From a phage: a DNA stretch of 64,000 nt. The stretch lies in assembly GCA_025829515.1 (NCBI GenBank), contig GCA_025829515.1_4865.1; one strand, given 5' to 3'. Both the position numbers and the translations under genes were made by a program. This document shows, in pieces, positions 41,462 to 57,745 of this stretch (positions are counted from its first letter, which is position 1; each line of letters starts with the position of its first letter). Below the pieces are notes generated by a model, which was given only the letters and a program-made list of their open reading frames with translations, searched no databases and was not told the DNA's origin.

Positions 41462-41858
41462 TTACGATGAATACGTTGATCGTTTACTGGTCAACAATAT
41501 CGTCTGGGAAGACCACGGTCTAATGCCATGGCATCTGAAACTCCTAGCGGAGCGTTCAGAACAATGCGGTGGTTTGGAGTTCGTACTCACCGACACACCA
41601 ATTCCGGTACCTCACATTGCGCCGGTAGAAAATCTGTACTTCTTCGATGCTAATGTGAAGTTATTACAGCAGGTACTCTATACGCATGACTGGCGTGGTG
41701 GTTGTCAGTTCCCAGAGAACGTTCTAAAGCTCTCTGAGCGCTTCGGCACCGACATTGCATACTGTCAAACGTTCCCAAAAGACTTGGGACGAAACAGCGT
41801 GGTACTGTGGTATTACCCTCCGGTAAAAGACATCGTGAAAGTGATTATCGAACGCTAA
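41436..41858 (+). CDS. hypothetical protein (140 aa)
   Basis: Overlaps end of previous gene; start uncertain. Confidence 0.45.
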   Translation: MAKKLFTVDYDEYVDRLLVNNIVWEDHGLMPWHLKLLAERSEQCGGLEFVLTDTPIPVPHIAPVENLYFFDANVKLLQQVLYTHDWRGGCQFPENVLKLSERFGTDIAYCQTFPKDLGRNSVVLWYYPPVKDIVKVIIER

Positions 41859-41912
41859 AAATAAAAGCAAACGAGTACCCCGTTAGGGGTACTCGCGTTA
41901 CTTATTTTTTTT
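41857..41912. terminator. bidirectional intrinsic terminator
   Basis: A-run, hairpin gagtaccccgttaggggtactc, T-run; between convergent operons. Confidence 0.65.
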
Positions 41913-41913
41913 G

Positions 41914-42465
41914 TTACGCTTGAGTCATGTCGGAGATGTCATAAACCAGACCGTTCAACTCAGTAACGGTGATCAGTTTACTGATATCGACACCATCGCT
42001 CGGAACTTCGGTCAAATAAACTTCAACCGTACCCGTCCACGCCAGTGACTTTCCATTGAAACGCAAATTGTGTTTCGTGGAAGACGTCATTGACTCCGTC
42101 GCATAAATCTCGCTCGCATCAATCAACCAATTGTACTTGGCCTGTAACAACGGAACGAGGTCGGCGGCTGTATTGGCGCTACTACCGTCCACAGACAGCA
42201 CCACGTTTTCAAACAGGTGGGCTACGTCCAGTCGACGGTAAGTAAGACCCATCTTACCAAACGTACCTTTCTCAACGATACCAGAAACATCGAGACTGGT
42301 GTTCAGTCTGGTGTACTGTTCTGGGTCAGGATCGGCTGCGGTGATGTGCGACGGGTTACCGAACGACAATTTATCGATGGTCACGCCCTTACCAGTCAGT
42401 CCGGGATTCTGGGACACGATAAGATCGTAAACCAACTCTTTTGCGGTCTTTCCAAATAAACTCAT
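41914..42465 (-). CDS. hypothetical protein (183 aa), last gene of leftward giant-protein operon
   Basis: Minus-strand ORF directly downstream of 753-aa gene. Confidence 0.55.
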   Translation of the reverse strand: MSLFGKTAKELVYDLIVSQNPGLTGKGVTIDKLSFGNPSHITAADPDPEQYTRLNTSLDVSGIVEKGTFGKMGLTYRRLDVAHLFENVVLSVDGSSANTAADLVPLLQAKYNWLIDASEIYATESMTSSTKHNLRFNGKSLAWTGTVEVYLTEVPSDGVDISKLITVTELNGLVYDISDMTQA

Positions 42466-42487: not shown

Positions 42488-44749
42488 CTATCGCGCTTGT
42501 GGTAGGAAAATGTTCGCGATTTGTCGTGCCGGTATGATATCTAACGCGGCGTTGACGATGCTGCCCTGTGACCAGGCACTTGCCCAGTTCTGCGCCCAGA
42601 TAGACGCGTTGATTTTAGCCTGCGCGATACCGTTGGTACGCTCGTAAAGCGTGGCAGCACCCAACACAGACATAAATTCACTGAACTTGTTATCATCATC
42701 AAACACACCAATATCAGTTACAATCGGCATGTACATAACACGCGACAGGTCACGAATAGTTACCTGTATATCACACGACAACGGCAGACCGTCAGCACGC
42801 CACCCTAACCCACCTGTACCAAACTGGAGACTCAAGTTAGTTACCATGGCATTACGCATGGAATAACGACCACGAGAATAACACTCCAGATAGAACGGGT
42901 GCGTAAACGATTGTTTACCGGTTGCTAACGGGCAAACTGCCGCTAACCAGAACGACAACGGGACAATCAGATCCTGGAACACATCTAAGTCGTTACCCGA
43001 CCAACAGCGAAGGGGAATGCTTAGCGAGATATCGTCACCTGAGGTGTCTGAGGAGTCCCACACTTCTGGGAAGTCAATCACTGACGAGTTGTACAGCGAC
43101 ATAATCCCTGATAAATGCAAGAAATCGAGTGCGCCTGTAAAGGCGGACTTCAACCCAGTAATGAGACCATCGACTGCGTCGAAACCAGTCTTACCACCAG
43201 AGAGGTTTACTTCCAAAGAACGTGCTTTCTGTGTGGCGGAGTTAACCGTGCCAGAGATTTCAGGTTCTTTGGTGGTGTTGGAGAACGAACGCCCTACGGT
43301 ATCACGTCCATCAACACGCCAAGTAATCCACTGCGAACCATTGCGTATCTCCGAAGCGATGTTCGAAGTTAACCCATCCATAGCGCCTTCTAAAATATCG
43401 ATATAGTCTTTGAAGACGCTACCGACAGATTCTTTCTGGCCTTGGTCCATCCAGTTTTCAATCTTCCCAATGTCGAGATTATTCTCATCCATTGAGTTTG
43501 CTTCGGTCTGACTTTTAGCAACTTGAGCCTGGTTCTTTTCAACCTGTGCCATACGCTCGGCAAGCTCTTTACGTTGCGCATCACCTTCGTTTTCGAAGTT
43601 TTCAGCTTTACCTCCTTGTGACTGAGCATCCTGAATGCTTCCGTTCATCCCTGCTACCAGTTCGTCTTCTTTGTTATCGACGTTTTCAAAACCGGCATCG
43701 TACCCTTTACCGGCTTTGGCTACGTATTCAAGGTTACGTAAAGAAACCTCGTACTGCGCAGCTTTCTCCAAATGGGTTGTTGAGTACGTCGCTTCCAGAT
43801 AGAAGTTTCGCAAACGTCGAGCCATGTCCTCTTCGTTACTCGACTCTTTACGAATTTTATCGATGGTTTTCGCCTGGTAGTTGGCTAATGTTTGGTAGCG
43901 GTTAATCATTCGATAGATATCGAACTCACCATCAGCTGTCCAGATTTCTGGCAGCATGGAGTACCACTCTTTGCGGTCGCCGTTGTACTTATTAGCAGTA
44001 CCGCCTTTCTCAGACCCATCTACAGCATTAGCAAGCTGGAAAGTCCCTAACACACCCGTTGGTACCAATCGGCGATAAACTAACTGGGTGTTGACCATAT
44101 TCTGCACAGCGCGCAGATACAAGTGCATTGTCGGTTTCACGTAGTAGTAGCGAGAAGTCTGCTTGTTCAGCACCATCTTCAACATACGTGGTGTAATTAG
44201 AATAACCGCAAAGGCAACCGTACCTACTGCGGCCCATATTGCTGCGGCGGCAACATACGTCCCCATCGCACGTAACATACCTGGGTAGTCACCTGTGCGC
44301 GCCAAATACGCTAGGTTGGAATCGTACATATTCGCGAAGAATGCAGCTACCCCGATATATCGAGGTTTACCGAAACGACAATGAAGATAAAAACTGTTTT
44401 GGTTAATAGCTTCGTAATAGAAAGTCCCTAAACGATAGGAACCACGTTGGTCTTGACCTTTAACGTACTTTGAGTACGAGCCACGACCTGCATCAGGTTG
44501 TGCAAAAGCACCTGTTGAACTCGGATCAGCAAACATCGTAAACTGCGGCGGCGCATTTAACGCTTGCGAACCACCCATCGTGGTATCTTCAAACGAGAGC
44601 ATCGCGTTAGAGTAACGACGCAAACCCAGGAAGCGCTCATCGCGCTGTGCGGTTGTACCGCCAAACAGGCCGGTTACCCATCCTGAATCTTTTAGTTGTC
44701 TTGCTTCCACGTAAAACCTCTCTGTAAGATGATTAGGGGGTGTTGCCAC
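42488..44749 (-). CDS. large hypothetical virion-type protein (753 aa)
   Basis: Long ORF starting 9 nt after giant-gene stop; hydrophobic segment and coiled-coil-like region; no specific motif. Confidence 0.6.
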   Translation of the reverse strand: MATPPNHLTERFYVEARQLKDSGWVTGLFGGTTAQRDERFLGLRRYSNAMLSFEDTTMGGSQALNAPPQFTMFADPSSTGAFAQPDAGRGSYSKYVKGQDQRGSYRLGTFYYEAINQNSFYLHCRFGKPRYIGVAAFFANMYDSNLAYLARTGDYPGMLRAMGTYVAAAAIWAAVGTVAFAVILITPRMLKMVLNKQTSRYYYVKPTMHLYLRAVQNMVNTQLVYRRLVPTGVLGTFQLANAVDGSEKGGTANKYNGDRKEWYSMLPEIWTADGEFDIYRMINRYQTLANYQAKTIDKIRKESSNEEDMARRLRNFYLEATYSTTHLEKAAQYEVSLRNLEYVAKAGKGYDAGFENVDNKEDELVAGMNGSIQDAQSQGGKAENFENEGDAQRKELAERMAQVEKNQAQVAKSQTEANSMDENNLDIGKIENWMDQGQKESVGSVFKDYIDILEGAMDGLTSNIASEIRNGSQWITWRVDGRDTVGRSFSNTTKEPEISGTVNSATQKARSLEVNLSGGKTGFDAVDGLITGLKSAFTGALDFLHLSGIMSLYNSSVIDFPEVWDSSDTSGDDISLSIPLRCWSGNDLDVFQDLIVPLSFWLAAVCPLATGKQSFTHPFYLECYSRGRYSMRNAMVTNLSLQFGTGGLGWRADGLPLSCDIQVTIRDLSRVMYMPIVTDIGVFDDDNKFSEFMSVLGAATLYERTNGIAQAKINASIWAQNWASAWSQGSIVNAALDIIPARQIANIFLPQAR

Positions 44750-44758
44750 CCCCTACGA

Positions 44759-47700
44759 TTAGCTTGCTTTCCGACTTACGTTTAACGACGGTGTCGGTTG
44801 GGTTATTTCCTGCCTACGTGCAGCTGAGCCAGGAGGAGGCACATTTGCCGCTTGCTGGATACTACCACCCCGTGTGTCGTTTGCCGCTCTTGGATTTGAT
44901 TTCAAAATATCACGAATCTCTTTCAAGTAATCGCGAGACTGAATCAGTACCTTGAGCTGCTGAACATCTATCGGGTCACCATTCAGCGTTGGCGTCGATG
45001 CTGTAGCATCAGAAGTTGGAGCGGCAACTGGACGAGCTGCTGCGTTAACCTGCGCTTCCGCGCCTGCTTTCACTTTAGCAACATCCGTCGCAGACAATCC
45101 TTCTGCTGCAGCTTGCGACGCTACGGTTTCGGCCGTTGTTGAGGCATCGGATGTTCCGGTACCGCCTGTGGTTGGTGTAGGTGCTGCTGGTCCTACATTA
45201 CCTGCGGCGGTAGCCATTGCATCTTGTGCCGCCATGGCCCCTTTCTGCGTCAATACGTCATCACGACGATTAGCATTATCTGCTGGCAGGTTATCTGCCG
45301 GTGACAGACTCGGGTCATTAGCGGCCGGTGCACCCATTGCTGCTGCCGGGTTGGTTGGTGAATTAGGCGACAAGCCTGCAACCATATCCTTCGTCTTGCT
45401 CGGATCGGCAGCGACTTCGTTGGCGGAAATTGCACCCATGCGGCGGTTCAGTTCCTGAATAACCCCATCTACGCTACGTATACGACCGTTGCTGTAGAAG
45501 ACGTTGGCATTCCCTCTCAGTATTGCGGATGTAATCCCAGGAGCACTCGATGCCGCCATATTCGGATTACGCTTCCATGCTTCCAGGAATTTCTTACCGC
45601 CGCCTGCACCCAGGAAGTGGTACAGATAAGCCACGGCTGGAGGTGGTGCTTTACCACCCAGGTCACGTTGTGCTTTTTGGATGTTGTCACGAATGAACTG
45701 TACACCCAAAATAGCATTCGCCCACGGGTCCATCTGGTTAACACGCGGAATACCGAACTTCCGCGAATACCCCTTCATCATCCCGTCCCACGTACCGTTA
45801 ACAAACTGGAACAACCCAGACGCCGAAGCATACGGGTTTTTAGCGGTGTAGTTAAAACCAGACTCCGCTTTTGCCATTGCTAACGCCACAGCAGGTGGCA
45901 CGCCCATCATGTTCGCTGCATCGGTAATCAATGCTTTGATATTCGGAACGTTCAACGCACCCTTTCTACCCAACATTTCTATCGGGTATTTTTCAGCCAG
46001 TGACTTATAATCACCGTCTTTCACATCACTCAGGTTAATCGAAGACGAACCAGTGGTCATTGCAGCGTAGTTCCGCACACCGCCAACCGCATCGACGACT
46101 TGACCCAAGTTACCCGGCACACCACCACTCGTACCCGATGGAATGTAGCCTGAGGCGCGAGCACCGTCAGATGACAAAGAATCTCCCGAACTGATGTTCG
46201 AGTCTTCTTCATCTTCACCGGTAACTTCCAGAGAACTGCGGTTCTTGTTACGATCCTTCCAGCGTGCACGCTTGCCATTATTTTTAATGGCTTTAATCAT
46301 GTTACGCACGGCAAGGTCAGCTTCTTTTGACAACAGCTTCAGCGTTTCCAGCTCGGCTTTGATAGACGATGGGTTCGTGTTAGCATCGCCCCCTAATGGG
46401 TTGATATTCACTTCCCACACCGACTGTCTTATACCGCCTTTCAAGCTATAAGCTGTTGACATCATCAAACTGATTTCGTACAGGTAACCGCCGGTCAGTT
46501 TCAAGTTCAGCGGATCGGCTGTTGGCAGGTAGCGTTTCACCCCAACCAAATACGTCATGAATACCGGTAAGAAGCGGTCAAAGAACCACCGTTTCAAACG
46601 ATCTTCTTTCGGTGTGCCGATAGCGTCTGGAACCATCGAAGCGATGGCTTTCTTCCAGTCACCTTTATAACTTGCGGTTTTCACGTCGATGTCTTTGATG
46701 ACGTTCTTCTCGAATACCGTAATCAACGTGCGTGTGGCGTTGTCGATGGTGGTAAAACCATAAGTCTTCCAACGTACCGACTCCATCGCATTCATGTCTT
46801 TCTGGTCGAGCACCGCGTTCCAGTCTACCTGAATCTGAACCTGCTCTGTTCCGTCTTCCCAACCTTCTACCTTCGCCAGATTTTTATTACGTTCGTTATC
46901 CAACTGTCCAAGTTTGTTGATAGCTTCATCAACACCCGCGGACTTAATCCCCTCCACGGCCGGTGCCATTCCGTACTTACGTGCTTTCTTATCGTCCATT
47001 CTGAACTTGATTGCACGCTCGACTTCATTCTGCACTTCCATAACCTCTTCACCGCTCAAAAACTCCTTCGGTGTAAAGGTTACAACGTCCCAGGCTTTCG
47101 AGAAGAAGCCTTGGTTGACTTTGCGTGGGTCTGTTAACGAAGAGAACGCTTTTGCATCCTTAGTCATCTTCATTTTGTTGAAGAGTGTCTGCATGTCCTC
47201 TTTCGATACTTTCTTAGCATCGCCGACGTCAGCCAACTGGATACTATTCGGCATTGATTTCAGTGCCGTAATCCAGCGGAGATAAATCGGAATAAAGCGC
47301 TGAAGCATAAACGCTTGGAAGGCCAACATCTCGCCTTTTTCCTCAACGTTAATACCGAACCCTTCAGCTAACTTCTGAACGTCTTTTCCACCTAGCCCAC
47401 GGAGACTGGCTTGGCCATCTTCCGCGTAAGACACATACTCACGCAATGCGTCTTCTAAGTAACGCGCCTTCGCCCCGTCATCCGACGACCACTTATCGTA
47501 ATCACGGAAACCGTACTGAGCTAAACGCATCTTATCCAGGTACTGGGTATAGGTAGTCGTTGCGATCTTGTACGCGGCGTAACCTGCCGCGGCGATCGCA
47601 CCACCGATAAGAATTGCCGGCCAGCCCACTGCTGTCACGACGGCAGATGCCGCAGTTGCCACAGCGGACACCGCGGGTGCCGCCAAACGGGTTACTGCGA

Positions 47701-50700
47701 ACTTACCAACATTCCACGCAGCCTTACCTAAAAGACCTACGGGTTTTAACACACCCCATTTCGTGATAGAACCGAGTATATTACCCACAGTTCCCAAGAT
47801 ACTGACGATGGGACCGATGATAGGTAAGCCTTTCACCACATCCCACAGACCGCCAGATTTCCCTTTGGAGCCCTGCGCTTTCTCTTTCTTCTCCTTACGT
47901 TTCTCACGCCAACGTTTGAAGAAGTTAAAGTAGTCGCGTTTTTCATCACCTTCAGGTGGCTTGTTACGTTTACCGAACTTCGCAAACATGGTACGGATGA
48001 TGCCATCGTCACCGCCTGCGCGGGATACTGATTCGCGCATGGTGTTAAACCACGACATCTCTTGCAAGCCAATCATTCGGTCCAAGCGTTCAAACAATCT
48101 TGCACCTGCAGATTTGGCAGCGTTCTTCCCTTTGTTGATAACCCGACCTGCTGCATCGCGCGCGGTCTCAAGGTCGTCCTTCGCGTCACCGTAGACTTTA
48201 CGGCCAGAAAGACCACCTTTCGCGTTCAGATGACTGCGATAGAATTCAGCGACATCATCATCGCGTCCTGCCAATCGACGTTCAACTTCGTAGCGTGTGG
48301 CAATGTCGTGTCGTGCTCCACGATATCCGTCGAGCATATCCCCAGCCCGGCCTCGGAAACCACTGAACCAACCACGCAGGCGGTCGCGTCCACGACCAAA
48401 GAACGCTTTTGTTCTTGACCAACGTCCACCAAAACGTTCAGACAACGACGATTTCGCACGATCATACGCCCCGCGTACTGCACGACCGATCGTACTACCG
48501 CCACCCCCGACACCCTTCTCCATTTCCTCTGTCCAACTTTCGTCTTCCGGATCTCCCGGTAAACGTTGATTCAACAGTTTATAGATACGGATAAGAATGT
48601 GGTTGGTTTTCTTGCCGGTTGATGAGAAGATACTGAAACCGCCACCCCCACCATCTTTACGACCTTTCCACCAACGCGTTAGTGGGTTGTCGGTAATCAT
48701 GTCTTTCAGACGATCGACACCACGTTTCGCAAAACCGAGCACTTTACCCGGTAAGCTCGTTACGCGGTTGAACGCTTTCTGGAGACGTGTCTTTTCTTCG
48801 CCTTCCGGAATCTCGTTCAGCCAGTCCTTAATCTTACCAACGATGCTGCCCGCTTTCGGTGACAGGAAATCCAGGAACCTTTTCGGTAGCTTAGCCACCT
48901 TATTAAAGCCTAAGCCGATCTTACTGGCCAGACCTTGGGTCAGCGCTTGGATTTTCCCACCTTTATAGTAGCGGAGTTTACCGGCAGCGGCTAAGTCAGC
49001 GGCCGCTAGTACCAGGTTACCTGCGGAGTCAACAATATCACTCCCCAGTTTGATATCGTCCAGCGTTTTCAACTGAACCATTTTACCATCAATGACCTGA
49101 TAGTATTCCCCAGCTTCCAGACGTGCACCTTGTAGAACAACGTTACCGTGGTCATCGTAAACATCGCGGATACCCAGTAGTCCTTTACCGAAGGAACTTA
49201 CCGCTTCAAAACCACCACGGACACTACCACTGATAAGGCCACGCATCCGGGTTAAGAAACCAGGACCTTCGCCACCTCCCATGCCTGCGACTTTACCGCG
49301 TGCCCAACCACCGAACTGGTTCAGTTTATTCCAGGCACCCTTAACACCACGTTTCGCAAAGCCGCCGATTCCTGCTGCGGTGTCGAACAACACACCGCCC
49401 CAACGACGAATAAGCCCATCCTCACCGATGATAATACGACGGCGTCTACCGCCACCGCTACCACCGCCAGGGCGAGGCGGACCCATTTCTTCATCACCAG
49501 AACCAGCACCCCCTGCTAACGAAGCCAGGAGAACCCCTTCTTCGTCCATACTTCTGACGTGTTCCAGAATTTTCTGGAGGGTGTCACTGTTGTTGTTACC
49601 CCGAATCGCTTCGATGATACCGTCAAAGTTATTCCGTGGTGCTTCTTCGCCACGGTTACGTTGACTCAACAATTCAACAAAGTTAGTCGAAGTTTCACCG
49701 TAGAGAACTGCGGCTAGCTGCCGAGGCGACATTCCGCGGCCTTTACCACCGCCACGTAAAGCCGGCGGCAACGACGTGTCATCGGCACCACCACTTGCCC
49801 CTTGGTTCATTCGGCGCAGATAGTCGCCTAACGCCGAACCATTTTGCAGCTTACGTTGAATCTCCTGGTCACGAGTCAATGCACGCCCGCTGCGTGTCTT
49901 ACCCATTGCCAAGTCATTAAACAAGGTATAGGGATCGGACAGGTCTTTATCCACGCCGAAGGTGTCACTCTTCGCGTCGTAGTTAAAGATACCCGCATCA
50001 CGCAACGCTCGCTCGCCGTAAATATTCACCGCCTCGTCGATAATTGCCTGACGTTGGGTGATAGATGACTGCACTGTGGAGATTTTGCGAGCCAGTTCGT
50101 TACTTAATTCGTTGCTACCACCAGTAAGACTGTCTGAATGCCCCTGTAACGCTTCCTTAATGCGTTCTGCGGCGTTTCCTGGCATATACCGATGAAGATG
50201 CATCGGGTCTTTCAGAATCGCTTCTACGTCGAATGCGCGGCCCTGCGAGGCACGTGACTCGATATAGTCGGCAAGATGCTGTCGATCCTTCTGCGAGAGC
50301 GTTTTGCCACGGTCAACAAAATCCACAGTGCTGTTAATGGAATTTTGGAGACGCAGGCGCTGCTCATCGTTTGCAACCGCTTTGCGTACACGGTTACCGA
50401 CCACTTTGCGGTCCACGAAACCACGACTGGTGATGTCGTATTCCAGATCGGCATGTTCGCCATAGCCACGACGAACAGATTTGTTAATCTCTGCCAGCCA
50501 GGCAGGAATAACTTCAACCAGGCTAAGATACGCTTTACGGTCAAACTTCGCCGAGCGACTTAACGTTTCGCCATTACGCTCATCAAGGAAGGCTTTCTCA
50601 CGGTTTAACGGTTGGACAATACCGAGTTCATTCAGTACCCGGAACAAATCCGCCAACGGTCCTTGCGTTTCGCCTGCGATAGCTGAGTTCGAGATAGAGG

Positions 50701-51880
50701 AAAGATTACCAAAGGTGAACGCGCCCTTCTGCAGGCGTTTCATGACCTCTGGATTTTTCTCCATCTCCTCACGAGTCCATTTCTGGAGTTTCTCGATTTG
50801 TGGGCCGAGTAGTTTCTTCGCAAGGAATCCGCTACCCCATGCAGTTGCTTTATCGCGAGCATTTGTTTTGCGACGTTCGGCAGTCAACGAAGAGCTGTCG
50901 CTCATGCCGAAACCGTCTTCAACACCCATGCCGAGAACAGACTCTAACAAACCACGACCTTCGCCAAATATACCAGAAATTTTCTTCTTGGTATTTTCGC
51001 GAATCATGTCCATAAACCCGTCAGCATAACGCAATGGGTTCATCCATTCCGCAGCCTGGCGTTTAACGTTTGCCCAACGGACTTCTGAGAAATCTTCCTT
51101 CGCGTAGTCTGGCAGCGCCGTGTTCTTCACGATGGCTTCTAAAGCAGGCGTGTTACGATCGAACTCCGACTGCTTCATCTTCACGATGTCTTGAATGGCG
51201 AACAGGGTACGGTATTGCAATTCGAGTTTCTTACGCTCGATGTTTAAGAATACCCCACGGCTTAACCCGGTTAGCAGGTTAATGTCTTTCGCCATCCCAA
51301 TCATGGTTTGGTGCATTGCATCCGCGCGCATCTCTTTGATGCTGTCGCGGAGCTTATCCTCTACCATGCGGTCCTGCAGCTGACGTTGTTCGTCGGCGTC
51401 CTTTGGCACGCCTGAGAAAACGTCGCCCAGTTCACGATCCATCAACGCCTGATTAGGATCGTAATTTTGGTAATCCAACTGGTCAGATTTTGACCACTTG
51501 TCGAAGCGCTTAGTAACTGCATCCGGCAAGTATTTCTTCATCGTCGGACCGAGTTGGCGTGCTTGCATCTTCAGCGTGCGCTCGGTCTTCTCAAGCTCCC
51601 CTTTCGTATGGGCGTAAATGTCCTTTGCTGCAGCTGCCGCTGACTGATAGCCCTCGTATGCATCAGCTGCCGGCTTAGGCATCCCCTTGAGGATAACTTG
51701 GTCACGTTTCCCTTCTGGCCAGATAGTTGACAACGCCGACTTCCTGGCAACATTCAGGGTACTGAGTATCGGGCTTCGTTTTTTCTCGTCTTTGGGACGG
51801 GGTGGTTCACCGAAATCATCCCAGTCGTCGAGTCTATCTAAATCGATATCATCGAAACCGTCTTTGCCTCTTTTTGCCAT
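44759..51880 (-). CDS. giant virion-associated protein with internal lytic transglycosylase (SLT) domain (2373 aa)
   Basis: Uninterrupted 7.1-kb ORF; SLT motifs AESGFN...SGLFQF...YLYHFLGAGG at residues ~2005-2130; Gly-rich stretches; Ala/Thr-rich low-complexity C-terminus. Confidence 0.85.
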   Translation of the reverse strand: MAKRGKDGFDDIDLDRLDDWDDFGEPPRPKDEKKRSPILSTLNVARKSALSTIWPEGKRDQVILKGMPKPAADAYEGYQSAAAAAKDIYAHTKGELEKTERTLKMQARQLGPTMKKYLPDAVTKRFDKWSKSDQLDYQNYDPNQALMDRELGDVFSGVPKDADEQRQLQDRMVEDKLRDSIKEMRADAMHQTMIGMAKDINLLTGLSRGVFLNIERKKLELQYRTLFAIQDIVKMKQSEFDRNTPALEAIVKNTALPDYAKEDFSEVRWANVKRQAAEWMNPLRYADGFMDMIRENTKKKISGIFGEGRGLLESVLGMGVEDGFGMSDSSSLTAERRKTNARDKATAWGSGFLAKKLLGPQIEKLQKWTREEMEKNPEVMKRLQKGAFTFGNLSSISNSAIAGETQGPLADLFRVLNELGIVQPLNREKAFLDERNGETLSRSAKFDRKAYLSLVEVIPAWLAEINKSVRRGYGEHADLEYDITSRGFVDRKVVGNRVRKAVANDEQRLRLQNSINSTVDFVDRGKTLSQKDRQHLADYIESRASQGRAFDVEAILKDPMHLHRYMPGNAAERIKEALQGHSDSLTGGSNELSNELARKISTVQSSITQRQAIIDEAVNIYGERALRDAGIFNYDAKSDTFGVDKDLSDPYTLFNDLAMGKTRSGRALTRDQEIQRKLQNGSALGDYLRRMNQGASGGADDTSLPPALRGGGKGRGMSPRQLAAVLYGETSTNFVELLSQRNRGEEAPRNNFDGIIEAIRGNNNSDTLQKILEHVRSMDEEGVLLASLAGGAGSGDEEMGPPRPGGGSGGGRRRRIIIGEDGLIRRWGGVLFDTAAGIGGFAKRGVKGAWNKLNQFGGWARGKVAGMGGGEGPGFLTRMRGLISGSVRGGFEAVSSFGKGLLGIRDVYDDHGNVVLQGARLEAGEYYQVIDGKMVQLKTLDDIKLGSDIVDSAGNLVLAAADLAAAGKLRYYKGGKIQALTQGLASKIGLGFNKVAKLPKRFLDFLSPKAGSIVGKIKDWLNEIPEGEEKTRLQKAFNRVTSLPGKVLGFAKRGVDRLKDMITDNPLTRWWKGRKDGGGGGFSIFSSTGKKTNHILIRIYKLLNQRLPGDPEDESWTEEMEKGVGGGGSTIGRAVRGAYDRAKSSLSERFGGRWSRTKAFFGRGRDRLRGWFSGFRGRAGDMLDGYRGARHDIATRYEVERRLAGRDDDVAEFYRSHLNAKGGLSGRKVYGDAKDDLETARDAAGRVINKGKNAAKSAGARLFERLDRMIGLQEMSWFNTMRESVSRAGGDDGIIRTMFAKFGKRNKPPEGDEKRDYFNFFKRWREKRKEKKEKAQGSKGKSGGLWDVVKGLPIIGPIVSILGTVGNILGSITKWGVLKPVGLLGKAAWNVGKFAVTRLAAPAVSAVATAASAVVTAVGWPAILIGGAIAAAGYAAYKIATTTYTQYLDKMRLAQYGFRDYDKWSSDDGAKARYLEDALREYVSYAEDGQASLRGLGGKDVQKLAEGFGINVEEKGEMLAFQAFMLQRFIPIYLRWITALKSMPNSIQLADVGDAKKVSKEDMQTLFNKMKMTKDAKAFSSLTDPRKVNQGFFSKAWDVVTFTPKEFLSGEEVMEVQNEVERAIKFRMDDKKARKYGMAPAVEGIKSAGVDEAINKLGQLDNERNKNLAKVEGWEDGTEQVQIQVDWNAVLDQKDMNAMESVRWKTYGFTTIDNATRTLITVFEKNVIKDIDVKTASYKGDWKKAIASMVPDAIGTPKEDRLKRWFFDRFLPVFMTYLVGVKRYLPTADPLNLKLTGGYLYEISLMMSTAYSLKGGIRQSVWEVNINPLGGDANTNPSSIKAELETLKLLSKEADLAVRNMIKAIKNNGKRARWKDRNKNRSSLEVTGEDEEDSNISSGDSLSSDGARASGYIPSGTSGGVPGNLGQVVDAVGGVRNYAAMTTGSSSINLSDVKDGDYKSLAEKYPIEMLGRKGALNVPNIKALITDAANMMGVPPAVALAMAKAESGFNYTAKNPYASASGLFQFVNGTWDGMMKGYSRKFGIPRVNQMDPWANAILGVQFIRDNIQKAQRDLGGKAPPPAVAYLYHFLGAGGGKKFLEAWKRNPNMAASSAPGITSAILRGNANVFYSNGRIRSVDGVIQELNRRMGAISANEVAADPSKTKDMVAGLSPNSPTNPAAAMGAPAANDPSLSPADNLPADNANRRDDVLTQKGAMAAQDAMATAAGNVGPAAPTPTTGGTGTSDASTTAETVASQAAAEGLSATDVAKVKAGAEAQVNAAARPVAAPTSDATASTPTLNGDPIDVQQLKVLIQSRDYLKEIRDILKSNPRAANDTRGGSIQQAANVPPPGSAARRQEITQPTPSLNVSRKAS
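45460..45900 (-). other. SLT (lytic transglycosylase) domain within giant protein
   Basis: Catalytic Glu of AESGFN encoded at 45863-45865 (minus strand); GLFQ and AYxxG-like motifs downstream. Confidence 0.7.
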
Positions 51881-51910
51881 AATGTTTCTTCCAATTCAGG
51901 AGCCTAAAAA

Positions 51911-53524
51911 GTGAGAAAGCTTAACTGGGTAGATTTTTATCTACTGAACGTTAATAAGTCCCTGGTGTCGCATTTAAAACCAGTTACAACAACAGACACC
52001 TTTCAGGGACTGACGAAAAACTTTCACCCTGAAGGACTGTATTCAACCGAAATTTTTGGCCTCACAGGGAGCGAAGCACGAGACTCAACGTTCTCGTACA
52101 TTGATATCAAACTGGATATCATTTCGCCGACCGTTTGTTTGGCATTGTTCCAGCTGAAACAGCTGTACGAAGAAATCTGTTCCGGGAAGCGATTCGCTAT
52201 CTGGAATGAGAAAGAAAAAGATTTCGAGCCGGCTCTGCCCAGTGATAAAGGTGCAGACACCGGCTTCAACTTCTTCCTACGCTACTACGAACAACTGACA
52301 CCGGGACGCAACGAATCGATGCGTCGCGACGAGACAGTCGATTTCTTCAATAAGTTCCGTCCGGTCAGTCTCAGCCGCTATGTGCTGGTTCTGCCTGCGG
52401 GATTACGTGATTTGGTCATTCGTCAGGATGGCCGCGACCAAGAAGAAGAGATTGGCGGACTCTACCGCCGTCTGATTTCTCTGGCACGTGCAATCCCCGA
52501 CCGCAGTACGCGAACGGAACTGACTGACCCGGTTCGCTGGAAGCTCCAACAAACCTTTAATGATATCTGGATGTACTTCTTCAACATCCAAGACGGTAAA
52601 GGTGGTTTTGCACGTCGTAAAGTGACGTCACGTAAGTTAATGAACGGTACGCGTAACGTACTGTCTTCATTCTCAACCGGTTCCAAGGTCATGGGTCGCG
52701 AAGATGCGATTCGTCCAACGGATACCCGTATCGGTTTGTACCAAACCCTGAAGGCATTACTGCCTGTGGCTCAATACCACATCCGCGAACGTTACCTCAG
52801 TAACATCCGGGCAGGGGACGGCAACTTATACGGCGTTAACACCAAAACACTCAAGCGTGAGTTCCTGGAAGTCTCCGGGCGGGTGTATGACCTTTTCACT
52901 ACCGACGATGGCATCGAAACACTCATCAACAGAATGGAAGCGCGCGAGCTTCGACATAAACCGCTGATGATTGATCCGGACCATTACGTGGCATTAATCT
53001 ACCAGGACAAACGCAGCTTCAAAATCTTCTACGATATTGAAGACCTGCCGGAAGGACGTGACCGTAAGCTTGTCCGCGGACTGAGCTTAGCGGAACTCCT
53101 CTATTTGTCAGGTTACGATATTTGGAATGACTACTTCTCGTTCATCACGCGTTATCCGGTTACGGGACGCGGTTCGACTTACTCCTCGACCATAAGATTG
53201 GAGACCACCACCTCTTCCCTCTATTTGCATGAACTGGAAGACGATTGGGTCACGTTAAAAGAGAAGGGAGCAATTAGCTTCCCTGACCGTACCGTGAAAA
53301 CCTTTGTGGAATCCATGGCACCACATCCATCCCGATTAGGTGGGTTGGGTGGTGACTACGATGGCGACACCGGCTCAGCAAACAGCCCGATGTCAACCGA
53401 AGCGCTCGAGGAAAATCGGAAGTGGGTCAGTTCGAAAAACTACTGGTTTGCAACAGACGGCAGTTTCAAAATCAATCCGGTTAACAACGTGATTAAAAGA
53501 ACGACTGCTGCGCTGTTGAAATGA
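51911..53524 (+). CDS. multisubunit RNA polymerase beta'-like subunit, N-terminal fragment (537 aa)
   Basis: NFHPEGLYSTEIFG, VLPAGLRDLVIRQDGRD...GGLYRRLISLARAI, GKGGFARRKV and DYDGD parallel E. coli RpoC FKPERDGLFCARIFGP, VLPPDLRPLVPLDGGR...DLYRRVINRNNRL, GKQGRFRQNLLGKRV and NADFDGD (from memory). Confidence 0.8.
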   Translation: MRKLNWVDFYLLNVNKSLVSHLKPVTTTDTFQGLTKNFHPEGLYSTEIFGLTGSEARDSTFSYIDIKLDIISPTVCLALFQLKQLYEEICSGKRFAIWNEKEKDFEPALPSDKGADTGFNFFLRYYEQLTPGRNESMRRDETVDFFNKFRPVSLSRYVLVLPAGLRDLVIRQDGRDQEEEIGGLYRRLISLARAIPDRSTRTELTDPVRWKLQQTFNDIWMYFFNIQDGKGGFARRKVTSRKLMNGTRNVLSSFSTGSKVMGREDAIRPTDTRIGLYQTLKALLPVAQYHIRERYLSNIRAGDGNLYGVNTKTLKREFLEVSGRVYDLFTTDDGIETLINRMEARELRHKPLMIDPDHYVALIYQDKRSFKIFYDIEDLPEGRDRKLVRGLSLAELLYLSGYDIWNDYFSFITRYPVTGRGSTYSSTIRLETTTSSLYLHELEDDWVTLKEKGAISFPDRTVKTFVESMAPHPSRLGGLGGDYDGDTGSANSPMSTEALEENRKWVSSKNYWFATDGSFKINPVNNVIKRTTAALLK

Positions 53525-53542
53525 TACCCATAAGGCACATGT

Positions 53543-56500
53543 ATGATTTTTCTGAAACAGTTTAACCAGCGCTTTACCGTGCGCAAGACCGATGAGTTCG
53601 GTCGTCCGCGTATTATCCCGCTGGAGAAGCTCCAGCTCCCACGTGGTTCTATCTACCACACCATCGATTTAGACCAGGTGGTTTTAGCGCCACCGTTAAC
53701 TACACCGTGTTTTGGCCAGCTGGAAAAACCGGCGATGATTCGCCACCACTTCCAGCTGCCTGAAGACGGCATTATTGGCCATCCGCGTAAGAAACCGGTT
53801 GTTGGTCAAGAGCGCCAAATCTTCCAGTACCATCGTAACAACCGTCGTATTCGTCGCATGATTGAAGACGGCGTGGTACGTTCCGATCCGAAAGTGCTGC
53901 TCATCGAAAACTACACCCCGATGCTGCCGCATTATTTCTACCCTGATACTCTGATGTCCTGGTACGAACGTCTGCACAACATTCAGCTGCTGATAACTAA
54001 CCAGATGAAAACTGACTCACGTGAGTACATGCGTCAGAACTACTACATCATCGAACTGGGTAACGTACTGCCTTCTTTCGATCGTTTTAAAATGACGTAT
54101 AACGATCGTGTTAAAACCAAACTGGAGCGCTTTAAAGACTTTAACCTGCTGTGGTTACTGGAGTTGTTCGGTTGGGTGTACGGAGATCAGCAAGCAACAC
54201 TGTTTGACGGTATGGACATGAACCAGCTGTCACGTGTGAACTTTATCTTCACACACAACGGTGGTTTTACATCCATGAACATGGGTGTAATTGAAAGAAT
54301 GCGTAAGTCTGCCGGTGGTCGTTTGACTGACGTGCAGATGGGCAGAATGTTCTACCGTACACTGACTACGGTGATGACCACACCGCCGTCTACCGACTAC
54401 GAAGATGACGAGTTCGTTACACCGGAAGGGGATGAACGCGTACATCTGGGAGAGGACGACGATGCTGTTGAAACCGTTGCCAGTAAACCGGAAGAAAGCC
54501 TCGATATCGTCGACGATGAAGCAACACAAAGCGACAACGTTGACGATACACTGAACGATCATGAGTTCGATGAGAAAGAAGATCTGGTCATCGAAGCGCC
54601 GAAAGAAGATGTCAAACCAACCACCATCGTCGTAGAACGCACCATCCCACACGATGCTGTGATTAAACAGGAAGTTGAGCGCCTGGCAGAAGCGGGCCGC
54701 GTCACCGCCAAAGCGTATCAGTTCCTGAACGAATCTTCTAAACGTTTCGTAAACTTACCCAACCCGTACAATCCTAAAGAGACGTACGGCGAAGGTCTGA
54801 CCATCGATCCGAAGAAACTCGAAGTTAAAGCCGAGCCTAAGAAGATTGAACGCTTAGTTACGGATGAAGCCTGGGCGGAAAATACCACCGACCAAATCAT
54901 TCGTCAGTACAACCAGGAAATCTTCCCGAAAGATATTCTGGGGGCAGTAGCGTCATCCCAACGTCTTGGTTTAGCGATTCACAATCACACTGTTGAGAAA
55001 GAGATTTCCGTTACCGGGAATATCGAACACCACACGTTGCGTATTCAGCCGATTGGCGGAGAACCAACCACGGTACGTTTCTCAATTCCTGCATTAACCG
55101 AAGACGGTACTTGGGTTGCAAATGGTGTGGAATATACAATGCGTCGTCAGCGTGTTGATCTTCCTATCCGTAAAGTGTCCCACGATACTGTAGCGTTAAC
55201 CACTGCCTACGGGAAGAACTTTGTCCGTCGCAGTGATAAAGTCGTCAATGATTACGGACGTTGGCTCACTAACGCGATTATTACTCGCGCGGTCGATCCA
55301 AAGAACACCGAAATCACTGATGCAAAACTGGCGAATGTGTTCGATCCGCTGTCTAAACTGCCGCGCCAATATACCGAAGTGGCGCGTCGTGTAGCAGCGT
55401 TCAACGCAATTGGGTACCAATGGAGCTTTGACATTAAACAGAAAGCGGCATTCTTTAACGAAGGGCAACTGGCAGACGCGGACCGTGTCGAGCTGGTACC
55501 TGTGGCGAAGAAACCGCGGAGCCATGTCATCGTCGGTATGGATAAAAACTCCCAGCTTTATCGAGTGGATAAGGATAAGACCGAACCACTGGGTACACTC
55601 GCCGAGGTCTTTGGCGTGGACACCTCTAAGGCTCCACGTGAAATGACCGAACTGTCACTGATGGGCAAATCAATCTCGCTGGGCTTTGTGTTTGCGTACT
55701 ATCTCGGATTAACCGGGATGTTGAAACACTTTGGTATCAGTTACGAGGTTCTCTCTGTCGGACAACGTATCGATAAAGGTCAGTTCGACTCCATTATTCG
55801 TCTCCAGGATGCGAAAATTGCAATTGTCTGCGAGAACGATCAACAGAGGATGATTGTCAACGGCTTAGACCGTTACATTAAACACTTTACCACGTATACC
55901 GAGTCGGAAGTTGACCGGGAAGACATTTATCTGAACCTGTTACGCGATGCAGATGGGCTAACACCACGCTACATCAAAGAGCTGAAACTGATGCGGACCG
56001 CATTTGTTGACGACATGCACGCGCGTATCCTCAGGAAAATGGGCGAGCCGGAAACCTTTATCGGCTTACTGGAGCGTTCTAACGAACTGCTGCAGACGGA
56101 CCACACGTTACCGGAAATTAACGGTGACGAAATGATGTTCATCGGGAACCAACGTATTTCGTATCACATCTACACCGCGATGGTGCGGGCGATGCGTAAC
56201 TACAACAACGCGCCTAACTCGAATCGTAAGTTTGAGTTGACGCAGGACATGGTGTGGGGTGCAATTAACTCCGACCCGTCTGTTCTGCTGGCACCTGGCG
56301 CAAACCCGGTACAGAACATCAAAGAAAAGGATGTCGTTACCATGGGCGGTACAGGCGGTCGTAACCGCAAAACCATGGTATACAGTACCCGTGAATTCCA
56401 ACCGAGCGACCTGGGGATTGTCTCCGGTAACACGGTCGATAACGGCGACGTAGGTATCACCGCCTTTGCAACAAACAATCCGCGTTACGACACCGTGGAC

Positions 56501-57745
56501 GGCACGACCTTTAAAAAGGACCTCGATAAACTGAAGCCAGGTGAGGCACTGTCATTTATTGATGGCTTAGTGCCGGATACCCTGATGGACGATGCTAAGC
56601 GTCAGAACTTCGTTGGGATTCAATTCGGTTCTGCGACCAGTTGTGTTGGCGCAACCACCACACCGTATCGTACCGAGCAAGAAAAGTTCGTGGCACACCG
56701 TACTTCTGTGAAGCACGCACGCGTAATCGATAAACCTGGCAAGATTGTGGAGGTTCTTAACGACCACGTTAAAATCAAATACGACGGAGAGGAAGAAGCT
56801 TTCCCACTGGGCCGTTGGTTCGGTCCGCACGAAGGGACTTACTACCCACACACCCTGGTAACGAAATGGAAGCGCGGAGATAAACTCCCTGCCGGTGCCG
56901 TTATCACGTACAACGAACAACACTTTGAACCAGACATCTACGATCCAACGCAGGTCAGCTTTAAAAACGGGATACTGGCAACTGTCGCTTTGATTGAAGG
57001 GGAAGAAGTAATTGAGGACTCCAACGCCATTAGTGAGCGGTTCGCTGCTAAGGCTGAAGCCGATGTTACCAAACTCAAAGAAGTCACAATGACGTTTACC
57101 CAGAACCTGTTGGAGATGGTAAAAGAAGGGGACCACGTAGACGTGGATTCAATTCTATGCACCTTCACCGACAACCTGACCGGCGATATGAGCGGGTTCA
57201 GTAAAGAAGCAGCGGAAACGCTGCGTGAGTTAAGCTCCTTTGCACCACGCTCTGGTGTTCGTGGGTTTATCGACAAAATCGAAGTGGTTTACCACGGCGA
57301 GGTGGAAGATATGACCCCGTCTTTGGCGGAGATGGTTCGTAAATACGACCGTATACGTCGGAAGACTGCGCTGGCTCTCAAACGTGACGAGCCGAAGGAC
57401 GGTCGAGTCAACGGTGATTTTCGTGTTGAGGGGGTGCCGTTAGCGTACAATAGCCTGTGTGTCCGATTCTACATCACACACCGGGTAGAGATGGCAGCAG
57501 CGGATAAGATGGTTATTGCTAACCAGCTGAAAACGACGGTTCAGGAAGTGATGTATGGAACCAACAAAACGGAAGACGGGCAGGAACTCGACATTATCTT
57601 TGGTCGTGATTCCGTCGACGCACGTATCGTAGGTTCTATCATGCGCATCGGAACCACCAACGCTGTCGGGTATCGTGGTGGGGAGAATATCGGACGCATC
57701 TTAGATGGTGAAGACGTCCCAGCCTTGCCGGCTAAAATCAACTAA
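53543..57745 (+). CDS. multisubunit RNA polymerase beta-like subunit (1400 aa), lacking extreme C-terminal beta region
   Basis: GTWVANGVEYT, REFQPSDLGIVSGNTVDNGDVGITAF, ADKMVIANQLKTTV and EDGQELDIIFGRDSVDARIVGSIM parallel RpoB [46 protein letters not shown] and [25 protein letters not shown] (from memory). Confidence 0.7.
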   Translation: MIFLKQFNQRFTVRKTDEFGRPRIIPLEKLQLPRGSIYHTIDLDQVVLAPPLTTPCFGQLEKPAMIRHHFQLPEDGIIGHPRKKPVVGQERQIFQYHRNNRRIRRMIEDGVVRSDPKVLLIENYTPMLPHYFYPDTLMSWYERLHNIQLLITNQMKTDSREYMRQNYYIIELGNVLPSFDRFKMTYNDRVKTKLERFKDFNLLWLLELFGWVYGDQQATLFDGMDMNQLSRVNFIFTHNGGFTSMNMGVIERMRKSAGGRLTDVQMGRMFYRTLTTVMTTPPSTDYEDDEFVTPEGDERVHLGEDDDAVETVASKPEESLDIVDDEATQSDNVDDTLNDHEFDEKEDLVIEAPKEDVKPTTIVVERTIPHDAVIKQEVERLAEAGRVTAKAYQFLNESSKRFVNLPNPYNPKETYGEGLTIDPKKLEVKAEPKKIERLVTDEAWAENTTDQIIRQYNQEIFPKDILGAVASSQRLGLAIHNHTVEKEISVTGNIEHHTLRIQPIGGEPTTVRFSIPALTEDGTWVANGVEYTMRRQRVDLPIRKVSHDTVALTTAYGKNFVRRSDKVVNDYGRWLTNAIITRAVDPKNTEITDAKLANVFDPLSKLPRQYTEVARRVAAFNAIGYQWSFDIKQKAAFFNEGQLADADRVELVPVAKKPRSHVIVGMDKNSQLYRVDKDKTEPLGTLAEVFGVDTSKAPREMTELSLMGKSISLGFVFAYYLGLTGMLKHFGISYEVLSVGQRIDKGQFDSIIRLQDAKIAIVCENDQQRMIVNGLDRYIKHFTTYTESEVDREDIYLNLLRDADGLTPRYIKELKLMRTAFVDDMHARILRKMGEPETFIGLLERSNELLQTDHTLPEINGDEMMFIGNQRISYHIYTAMVRAMRNYNNAPNSNRKFELTQDMVWGAINSDPSVLLAPGANPVQNIKEKDVVTMGGTGGRNRKTMVYSTREFQPSDLGIVSGNTVDNGDVGITAFATNNPRYDTVDGTTFKKDLDKLKPGEALSFIDGLVPDTLMDDAKRQNFVGIQFGSATSCVGATTTPYRTEQEKFVAHRTSVKHARVIDKPGKIVEVLNDHVKIKYDGEEEAFPLGRWFGPHEGTYYPHTLVTKWKRGDKLPAGAVITYNEQHFEPDIYDPTQVSFKNGILATVALIEGEEVIEDSNAISERFAAKAEADVTKLKEVTMTFTQNLLEMVKEGDHVDVDSILCTFTDNLTGDMSGFSKEAAETLRELSSFAPRSGVRGFIDKIEVVYHGEVEDMTPSLAEMVRKYDRIRRKTALALKRDEPKDGRVNGDFRVEGVPLAYNSLCVRFYITHRVEMAAADKMVIANQLKTTVQEVMYGTNKTEDGQELDIIFGRDSVDARIVGSIMRIGTTNAVGYRGGENIGRILDGEDVPALPAKIN

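Follow-up and report, generated by a model that had tools for sequence, protein, structure and literature searches.

What is the giant protein that is encoded leftward beside the virion RNA polymerase genes of this phage, and what might it do in the virion? The window analysed here, 64,000 nt of phage DNA, carries on its minus strand an uninterrupted ORF of 7122 nt (44759..51880, from an ATG start to a TAA stop) that encodes 2373 aa, just as an initial reading of the sequence alone (hereafter the sequence-only reading) had described this 7.1-kb frame. A chance origin is excluded by this length and by the existence of hundreds of full-length homologues. The DNA of the window is 96.5–99% identical at the nucleotide level to SPN3US and the SPFM phages, an identity that places the source among the SPN3US-like jumbo phages (Seoulvirus, Chimalliviridae). 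Among database records, those of the SPFM phages are nearest (99.0% DNA identity), and the giant protein is 99.7% identical to those of SPFM4 and SPFM22.

The protein has a predicted mass of 259 kDa and a pI of 9.5, and it contains no Cys where 21.6 would be expected (P = 4e-10); Cys is also rare family-wide (0.068% in 207 representatives). In the same 207 representatives, length is 2369 +/- 172 aa, while identity goes down to about 22%. Two AF2 models, with a mean pLDDT of 59 and 68 and low confidence across much of the protein, predict a helix content of 58%, with individual helices of 35–49 residues; 53 of the 2373 residues are predicted to be in strands. The acidic N-terminus and the three Gly-rich tracts picked out from the sequence are all present, the latter at aa 804 (PGGGSGGGRRRR), 1077 (GGGGGFSIFS) and 1125 (GGGGSTIGRA), and so is the Ala/Thr/Pro-rich tail, whose aa 2201–2300 consist of 28% Ala and 21% Ser plus Thr. 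The features of the protein and of its neighbourhood are collected in Table 1.

Table 1. Features of the giant protein and of the surrounding locus, with positions in the window.
Feature	Residues	Position	Strand	Remarks
Terminator hairpin		41871..41896	both	10–11 bp, 7 G-C pairs; T-rich tails on both strands
DUF7941 virion protein gene		41914..42465	-	183 aa; N-terminal module only; 22 nt after preceding gene
Homologue of SPN3US gp238 / phiKZ gp182 (spacer ring) / Goslar gp203 (tail tube initiator complex)		42488..44710	-	740 aa
Hairpin GGGGGTG-GCAA-CACCCCC		44736..44753	-	Directly after giant ORF stop; without T-run
C-terminal amphipathic helix (QQLxVL...L..I) and terminal peptide ...PTPSLNVSRKAS		44762..44974	-	Conserved
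Ala/Thr/Pro-rich linker	2150-2300	44981..45433	-	Poorly conserved
SLT / GH23 lytic transglycosylase domain	1984-2139	45464..45931	-	
Middle domain	1441-1853	46322..47560	-	Conserved, mostly helical; without known fold
Basic stretch, then Gly/Ala-rich hydrophobic segments	1301-1343; 1344-1373 and 1399-1440	47561..47980	-	
Two ~42-aa beta-hairpin repeats	906-985	48926..49165	-	Motif D[IV]xDxxGNxVL...G..YY
IVKNTALPDYAKE motif	250-262	51095-51133	-	Family's most conserved N-terminal motif
Long-alpha-helix region	37-420	50621..51772	-	Predicted single helices of 35–49 residues
Acidic N-terminus	1-37	51770..51880	-	Family-conserved; predicted disordered, pLDDT <50
Virion RNA polymerase beta-subunit genes (SPN3US gp240, gp241)		51911..57745	+	537 and 1400 aa; divergent

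Several of these features recur throughout the family. The hydrophobic segment is present in 194 of 207 homologues, at 0.60 +/- 0.06 of the length, and together with the preceding basic stretch it forms a putative membrane-inserting hairpin. A marginal match of this segment to the AopB T3SS translocator (E 0.024) was treated as compositional. The middle domain that follows is restricted to the giant-protein family, and at the very C-terminus Arg2370 is invariant within the terminal peptide, the helix and peptide together being a candidate anchor to the hub/spacer ring. The beta-hairpin repeat occurs in additional copies in longer homologues, and self-BLAST revealed no long internal repeats apart from these two short units. 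Beyond the SLT domain, searches for further domains in Pfam (E up to 5, four segments), in NCBIfam and with the family profile against PDB sequences returned noise only (Gp-FAR-1, ComX, Mre11_C and haemagglutinin HA2 were discarded as such), and a structural search with the N-terminal half gave no match.

The SLT-type domain itself had been read at about residues 2005–2130; it is real, but sits slightly upstream. PF01464 matches aa 1984–2072 (E 3.6e-9, 36.7 bits against a Pfam gathering cut-off of 21.3 bits), and phmmer aligns aa 1987–2139 with phiKZ gp144 (E 2e-15), the family profile reaching E 3e-58 against the same protein. The Glu2006-Ser2007 pair, which matches the 'IES' motif of gp144, is invariant in all 36 aligned sequences, as are Q2025 and other SLT positions; the GLxQ and T-W motifs are present, and the codon of the catalytic Glu2006 is GAG (45863-45865). 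A lysozyme-like alpha-helical fold is predicted for the domain by AF2 with a pLDDT of 85–95. Both an SLT profile match and a catalytic Glu within a lysozyme-like fold, on which the sequence-only reading had staked its assignment beforehand, were therefore found, and by alignment and predicted structure the active-site motif and the fold are intact. The likeness to gp144 (PDB 3bkh, 9xps_S), an endolysin and neck 'wedge' lytic transglycosylase, is limited to aa ~1987–2139, gp144 being a stand-alone enzyme of 260 aa with an N-terminal peptidoglycan-binding domain. The hydrolase module varies across the family, where SLT, GH19, M23 or VanY is found. Experimental activity is on record only for the corresponding domain of phiKZ gp181, which is muralytic according to a review that does not decide between a lysozyme and a transglycosylase (PMC5380687, citing Briers 2008).

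The resemblance to phiKZ gp181, pointed out in the sequence-only reading, extends over the full length of the protein and to an identical synteny beside the virion RNA polymerase genes. The giant protein scores 2456.7 bits against PHROG 3201, and the family profile aligns collinearly with phiKZ-type gp181 over 1821 columns (hhalign probability 100%, E 7.6e-99). Divergent polymerase beta genes, the giant gene and a gp182-type ring gene follow each other in the same order in the window, SPN3US, Goslar and the phiKZ-type phage KTN4. On these sequence grounds, the giant protein is a member of the SPN3US gp239 / phiKZ gp181 orthologous group. SPN3US gp239 (YP_009153533) is the same gene: the locus is 96.5% identical at the nucleotide level, the neighbouring genes agree, the predicted mass is likewise 259 kDa, and the substitutions are of strain level only. 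In phiKZ gp181, the SLT domain occupies an equivalent relative position, and ~0.58 of the way along the chain there is again a hydrophobic segment rich in Gly and Ala, albeit a weaker one. The phiKZ protein is 136 aa shorter (2237 aa), differs in its C-terminal peptide and is only ~21–24% identical in BLASTP segments.

This orthology links the protein to an existing literature, and it is not new: earlier work on phiKZ-like phages already treats it as their tape measure and as a peptidoglycan hydrolase of the virion. Publications on SPN3US (PMC5105663, PMC5694885, PMC10052503) present gp239 as a 259-kDa tail tape measure protein; virions contain it, whereas tailless particles lack it or carry less of it. 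The mass spectrometry of this 96.5%-identical protein places it in the tail and bears out the earlier assignment to the virion. In phiKZ, orf181 is devoid of transposon insertions and was called 'likely the tape measure' (PMC12676376), and in Goslar the 249-kDa homologue is listed as 'Tail protein', with 3.4–8.0 copies per virion estimated by label-free quantification. For orthologues, then, the literature demonstrates the location in the tail, the low copy number, the essential nature of the gene and the muralytic activity of the gp181 domain. The ~1900 residues outside the SLT domain, which the sequence-only reading had left as uncharacterised, are not entirely so, since the literature already names a tail tape measure protein.

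These data bear on three other assignments. The protein could be an internal head (inner-body/core) ejection protein that is packaged with the DNA beside the virion RNA polymerase, ejected through the tail and able to cut the wall, in the manner of T7 gp16. This is highly improbable: DNA-filled tailless heads of SPN3US contain no gp239, and tailless particles retain strongly reduced amounts of it; in Goslar, the homologue is listed as a 'Tail protein' and occurs in few copies. Nor does the similarity to gp16, a podophage head-internal core protein that carries its SLT domain N-terminally, extend beyond that domain. An older assignment makes phiKZ gp181 the baseplate spike, and reviews carry the entry 'needle-like cell-puncturing device, putative trimer' for it (PMC5380687). 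In the phiKZ virion atlas, however, gp164, gp163.1 and gp101 account for the spike, tip and hub and gp182 for the spacer ring under the tube, the Goslar spike is likewise assigned to other proteins, and the AF2 models of the giant protein, 58% helical, contain neither an OB-fold nor a beta-helix, which leaves the spike extremely improbable. RefSeq, GenBank and PHROG 3201 present the protein as a tail fibre, a reading that has the database labels alone in its favour and a practically negligible probability, as the protein has no fibre-like beta-structure, receptor-binding domain or Pfam fibre domain, combines a hydrophobic hairpin with an internal enzyme domain, and is present in ~3–8 copies per virion in Goslar; in the SPN3US literature, it is the gp168-170 paralogues that are cast as fibre and baseplate proteins. 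The head-internal, spike and tail fibre readings were accordingly rejected on the structure models, copy number and tailless-particle proteomics. SPN3US gp239 carries the RefSeq label 'tail fiber protein', and the SPN3US papers call it tape measure.

The genes around the giant ORF are informative as well. The next ORF had been taken to encode 753 aa and to begin after 9 nt, which is correct when starts are read mechanically (GTG 44749), but this GTG is buried in a hairpin and lacks a spaced RBS. A GAGAGG RBS precedes the second in-frame GTG (44710), from which translation gives the product of 740 aa annotated in SPN3US; the spacer to the giant ORF is therefore probably 48 nt. The downstream protein shows no homology to T4 gp48 and matches phiKZ gp182 (9xqs_K, E 2.4e-62) and Goslar gp203 of the 'tail tube initiator complex' (E 5.9e-57). 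Its identity as a tail-tube-initiator or spacer ring protein was missing from the sequence-only reading. The third ORF, of 183 aa, was confirmed, and belongs to DUF7941, a chimallivirus-specific family proposed to build baseplate-associated filaments. The bidirectional terminator noted at the end of the operon is also there, and separates it from a convergent plus-strand gene ending at 41858. On the other side, the start codons of the giant gene and of the divergent polymerase gene are 30 nt apart, and no frameshifted tail-chaperone pair lies upstream of the giant gene. A scan for sigma-70 promoters gave fewer sites than in shuffled sequences, a result that is irrelevant to transcription by a phage polymerase.

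We consider it probable that the giant protein is a tail tape-measure-type protein that acts as a ruler in the tail lumen, is ejected, cuts the cell wall and inserts into the membrane. Its elongated, mostly helical build and its internal hydrophobic hairpin (aa 1344–1440) fit this class of proteins, as does the position of its gene next to a tube-initiator gene (the phiKZ gp182 / Goslar gp203 homologue), and six copies would occupy ~26% of a lumen of 68 Å x 2000 Å. The ruler role, location in the lumen, orientation, ejection and channel formation are what we infer for it, ejection by likeness to other tape measure proteins.

The T4 system offers a parallel for this arrangement. The order of the T4 genes is 29 (tail length), 48 (tube cap) and 54, and the T4 tape measure protein has been modelled bound to gp48 and forms a membrane channel (preprint 10.64898/2026.03.06.709160). 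T4 gp29 (590 aa) would be functionally alike, as its gene immediately precedes that of the tube cap/initiator, and it is also helical, with an internal hydrophobic segment, no Cys and 2 His; it differs in being four times shorter and in having no enzyme domain, the T4 lysozyme being on the spike protein gp5. Homology to gp29 was not detected (hhalign probability 0.1%), and the T4 parallel is one of position and function only. T5 Pb2, a siphophage protein that is much shorter, can be likened to the giant protein by design. In 2008, Boulanger (listed in PMC6116005 and PMC5380687) reportedly ascribed fusogenic and muralytic activities to this tape measure. The design idea would be the same, a single tail-lumen protein in which a ruler is united with a membrane-active hydrophobic segment and, close to its C-terminus, a cell-wall hydrolase. 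The hydrolase of Pb2 is a peptidase-type domain, unlike the SLT domain.

Other observations fit the ruler less well. Searches of Pfam, NCBIfam and PHROGs matched no tape-measure model, the matches being of SLT type only; tape measure proteins do not make up a single sequence family, and the missing match therefore weakens membership in a family rather than tape-measure function. Each residue would contribute a rise of just ~0.7–0.9 Å (1622–2000 Å for the 2237 aa of phiKZ), against ~1.6 Å in T4. In addition, the Goslar tube (1801 Å, 46 x 39.16 Å) is 11% longer than that of phiKZ (1622 Å, 43 x 37.73 Å), while the Goslar protein, at 2252 aa, exceeds the phiKZ one by merely 0.7% and has a shorter part before its hydrophobic segment (~1254 versus ~1296 aa). 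Tube length and protein length thus show no simple scaling in this single comparison of two phages. The product of 1343 residues and 1.5 Å, 201 nm, was dismissed as a coincidence that the phiKZ-Goslar comparison does not support. The giant protein is not modelled in the phiKZ atlas or in the Goslar structure, and a tape measure is mentioned in neither.

The lack of scaling, the rise far below that of canonical rulers, the missing tape-measure profile and the absence of the protein from both virion models would all suit a lumen or baseplate 'pilot' protein, which would be ejected, digest peptidoglycan and aid membrane passage, tail length being fixed otherwise, for example by intrinsic properties of tube and sheath or by a terminator. 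We regard this as unlikely, since the contractile and long non-contractile tails studied to date require a ruler, and no rival candidate for that role is named in the SPN3US, phiKZ or Goslar literature examined. Moreover, the tight conservation of length at 22–25% identity is hard to reconcile with a mere cargo enzyme, and the giant gene adjoins a tube-initiator gene as gene 29 does in T4.

Under the preferred tape-measure reading, three to six copies of the giant protein would lie within the wide lumen of the tail tube, their conserved C-terminal peptide gripped at the hub-proximal spacer/tube-initiator ring formed by the product of the next gene, and their helical N-terminal two-thirds reaching toward the neck and scaffolding tube polymerisation. 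Once the sheath has contracted and the spike is gone, the protein would leave the tube C-terminus first, and its SLT domain (Glu2006) could cut the peptidoglycan locally. The basic-plus-hydrophobic hairpin (aa 1301–1440) might then enter the inner membrane and form or line a conduit for DNA, a step of the kind described for T4 gp29 and T5 Pb2. A further proposal, which we hold to be quite unlikely, is that the giant size reflects additional infection modules beyond ruler length, the hairpin and middle domain being delivered into the inner membrane and the interchangeable hydrolase fitting the machine to differing cell walls.

As an annotation, this assignment is of small importance, the protein and its orthologues having been described previously, and its practical gain is that the common label 'tail fiber protein' can be corrected. 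It also provides handles for experiments, namely the conservation of length, the near-zero Cys content, the hydrophobic hairpin, the private middle domain, the swappable hydrolase and the C-terminal peptide.

As had been read from the sequence alone, the giant gene is a single uninterrupted ORF whose product carries an acidic N-terminus, three Gly-rich tracts (at aa 804, 1077, and 1125) and an Ala/Thr/Pro-rich tail; two further ORFs follow downstream in the same direction, and the three-gene unit ends at the proposed bidirectional terminator. GC skew is negative over 42-54 kb of the window, as expected from minus-strand coding. The 9-nt spacer claimed between the giant gene and the next ORF holds if the latter starts at the GTG at 44749. 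However, this codon sits within a hairpin, and translation from a second in-frame GTG (44710), which has a GAGAGG RBS, would yield 740 aa, the length annotated in SPN3US. Lacking a T-run, this hairpin may serve mRNA stability or translational coupling rather than termination. At the other end of the giant gene, the divergent start codons are so close that both promoters must lie within adjoining coding sequences or farther upstream.

Coordinates of the features of the giant gene, its product, and its surroundings
Feature	Window position (strand)	Residues (aa)	Remarks
Giant ORF	44759-51880 (-)	1-2373	2373 codons, ATG start, TAA stop
Tube-initiator/spacer protein ORF	42488-44749 (-)
DUF7941 ORF	41914-42465 (-)		183 aa
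Terminator hairpin	41871-41896		10-11 bp, 7 G-C pairs, T-rich tails on either strand
Intergenic hairpin	44736-44753 (-)		Directly after giant ORF stop codon; 7-bp G+C stem, GCAA loop; MFE -21.4 kcal/mol, z = -2.0; overlaps first possible GTG of next ORF
Divergent gap	51881-51910		30 nt, to virion RNA polymerase beta gene
Acidic N-terminus		1-37	Disordered
Long helices		37-420	Include most conserved motif
Motif IVKNTALPDYAKE	51095-51133 (-)	250-262	Invariant K252, N253, T254, L256, P257, K261
Helical region		360-690	Better predicted
Gly/Arg-rich zone		693-905	Low confidence
Two beta-hairpin repeats	48926-49165 (-)	906-985	~42 aa each, D[IV]xDxxGNxVL...G..YY, well predicted
Basic helical segments		973-1343
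Hydrophobic segments		1344-1373, 1399-1440	Gly/Ala-rich, preceded by highly basic stretch
Middle domain		1441-1853	Conserved, helical
Linker		1854-1922
SLT domain		~1923-2183
Ala/Thr/Pro linker		2150-2300	Variable
C-terminal helix and terminal peptide		2303-2373	Conserved, Arg2370 invariant

The lytic transglycosylase (SLT) domain proposed within the giant protein is genuine, as several observations concur; the outcome that the sequence-only reading had named as refuting it (no SLT profile hit, no catalytic Glu in a lysozyme-like fold) did not arise. Pfam PF01464 matches aa 1984-2072 with 36.7 bits (cut-off 21.3 bits), and among solved structures the lytic transglycosylase gp144 of phiKZ is nearest (phmmer E 2e-15 over aa 1987-2139; family profile E 3e-58). 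Glu2006-Ser2007, which supplies the catalytic Glu, aligns with the Glu-Ser motif of gp144 and is invariant in 36/36 aligned family members, as are the GLFQ and T-W motifs. The AlphaFold2 model of aa 1174-2373 is moreover confident over the domain (pLDDT 85-95).

The locus shares 99.0% DNA identity with Salmonella SPFM phages and 96.5% with SPN3US (Seoulvirus), where the same gene has a 740-aa gene on one side and, on the other, two beta-subunit genes of the virion RNA polymerase. Of note, the orthologue aligns only as 7-11 separate fragments or with very little coverage in SPFM1 (LR535901), SPFM15 (LR535913), and SPFM20 (homologue P0051), which looks like frameshift-type sequence errors in the deposits, not biology. 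The protein, with a computed mass of 259.04 kDa, is already described in the literature, as SPN3US gp239 or phiKZ gp181. SPN3US gp239 was seen in virions by mass spectrometry; DNA-filled tailless particles from a gp64 mutant lack it, and it is depleted when the tail tube (gp255) is mutated (PMC5105663, PMC5694885, PMC10052503). The sequence-only finding is thus correct, and the interpretation given with it is supported.

Kinship with phiKZ gp181, invoked in that reading, is borne out by comparison of the family profile with a 2237-aa phiKZ-type protein (1821 columns, probability 100%, E 7.6e-99); tblastn alone linked phiKZ-type phages by the SLT domain only, and pairwise BLASTP gives collinear segments of 21-24% identity. 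The position beside virion polymerase genes is likewise shared: in the phiKZ-type phage KTN4 and in Goslar, divergent virion RNA polymerase genes are followed by the giant gene and then by a 664-713-aa gene. A passage of a review citing Briers 2008 reports measured muralytic activity for the C-terminal domain of phiKZ gp181 (PMC5380687).

The product of the next gene matches phiKZ gp182 (PDB 9xqs_K, E 2.4e-62) and Goslar gp203, a "tail tube initiator complex protein" (11lx_H, E 5.9e-57); its SPN3US counterpart, gp238, is tail-associated and essential according to the SPN3US literature. It also matches PDB chain 36za_rp (648 aa, E 6e-56), whose name, "Capsid decorator gp77," is at odds with the baseplate role of these homologues. 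In the phiKZ virion atlas, gp182 is a hexamer that forms the spacer ring separating the tube initiator gp88 from the hub gp101, and the spike consists of gp164 and gp163.1 (PMC13250141), which rules out the older idea of gp181 as a puncturing needle. The third gene encodes a DUF7941 protein (Pfam E 1e-26) without cysteine. Only the N-terminal 178 of 276 DUF7941 positions are covered, i.e., the N-terminal module, as in Goslar gp23-type members of the proposed baseplate "fiber cloud" family; DUF7941 is a chimallivirus-specific family proposed in the literature to form baseplate-attached filaments. The order of the giant gene and the tube-initiator/spacer gene after it is the same in T4, where gene 29, the tail length determinator, precedes 48, the tube cap, and then 54. 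No sequence homology to T4 gp29 or gp48 is detectable, and the parallel is therefore positional and functional.

Outside the SLT domain, the layout was drawn from conservation profiles and AlphaFold2 models, whose mean pLDDT of 59 and 68 makes them secondary-structure guides. The protein is 58% helix, and neither its N-terminal half nor its middle domain matches any known fold. Within the N-terminal half, conservation peaks at IVKNTALPDYAKE, a motif that phiKZ gp181 still carries in recognisable form (VRNTGIPDHKK). Length varies within the family chiefly in the beta-hairpin repeat zone, since homologues of ~2450 aa contain extra copies of the repeat.

When 1.84 billion representatives were searched exhaustively by HMMER, the middle domain matched 342 proteins (E <= 1e-3); among the 150 matches listed, nearly all are 2000-2700 aa long with the domain in the same place relative to their length. 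The 207 full-length family representatives measure 2369 +/- 172 aa (5th-95th percentile 2158-2596) despite identities down to ~22%, and 194 of them have a hydrophobic segment at 0.60 +/- 0.06 of their length. The hydrolase module is exchangeable in this otherwise collinear family (homologues P0041, P0043, P0044, P0084, P0086, and P0094; homologue-bearing locus L002, 3824-10582): most members carry SLT, others GH19 (PF00182, chitinase-like), SLT plus M23 peptidase, or SLT plus VanY; the Goslar homologue has a COG3179 chitinase-like domain, and in some members no enzyme domain is detectable. Relative to the other ORFs of the window, the giant protein has no Cys against 21.6 expected (Poisson P = 4e-10) and is four-fold depleted in His (13 against 50); Cys makes up 0.068% of residues across the 207 representatives. 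T4 gp29 is alike, with 0 Cys, 2 His, and an internal hydrophobic segment. Together, these data suggest that selection disfavours disulfide bonds or metal binding while the protein passes through the periplasm.

All this fits a low-copy tail-lumen protein, given that the Goslar literature labels the homologue "Tail protein" and puts it at ~3-8 copies in each virion, and that six copies would fill ~26% of a 68 A x 2000 A lumen. For the steps from "ruler" onwards, we infer that the giant protein would scaffold tube assembly, starting at the spacer ring, and be expelled on contraction, whereupon its SLT domain would cut peptidoglycan and its hydrophobic hairpin would enter the inner membrane. Several points argue against a simple ruler: the protein is absent from both published virion structure models (phiKZ and Goslar), and each residue would apparently span ~0.7-0.9 A of tube length, vs. 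~1.6 A in T4. Furthermore, the tube is 11% longer in Goslar than in phiKZ (46 x 39.16 A vs. 43 x 37.73 A), whereas the Goslar protein is only 0.7% longer, its pre-hydrophobic part being slightly shorter. If the protein is a ruler at all, measuring would be confined to part of it. The "tail fiber" database label should be corrected, and with the family features compiled here, the ruler, ejection, and membrane-channel roles, still unproven, can be put to direct test.
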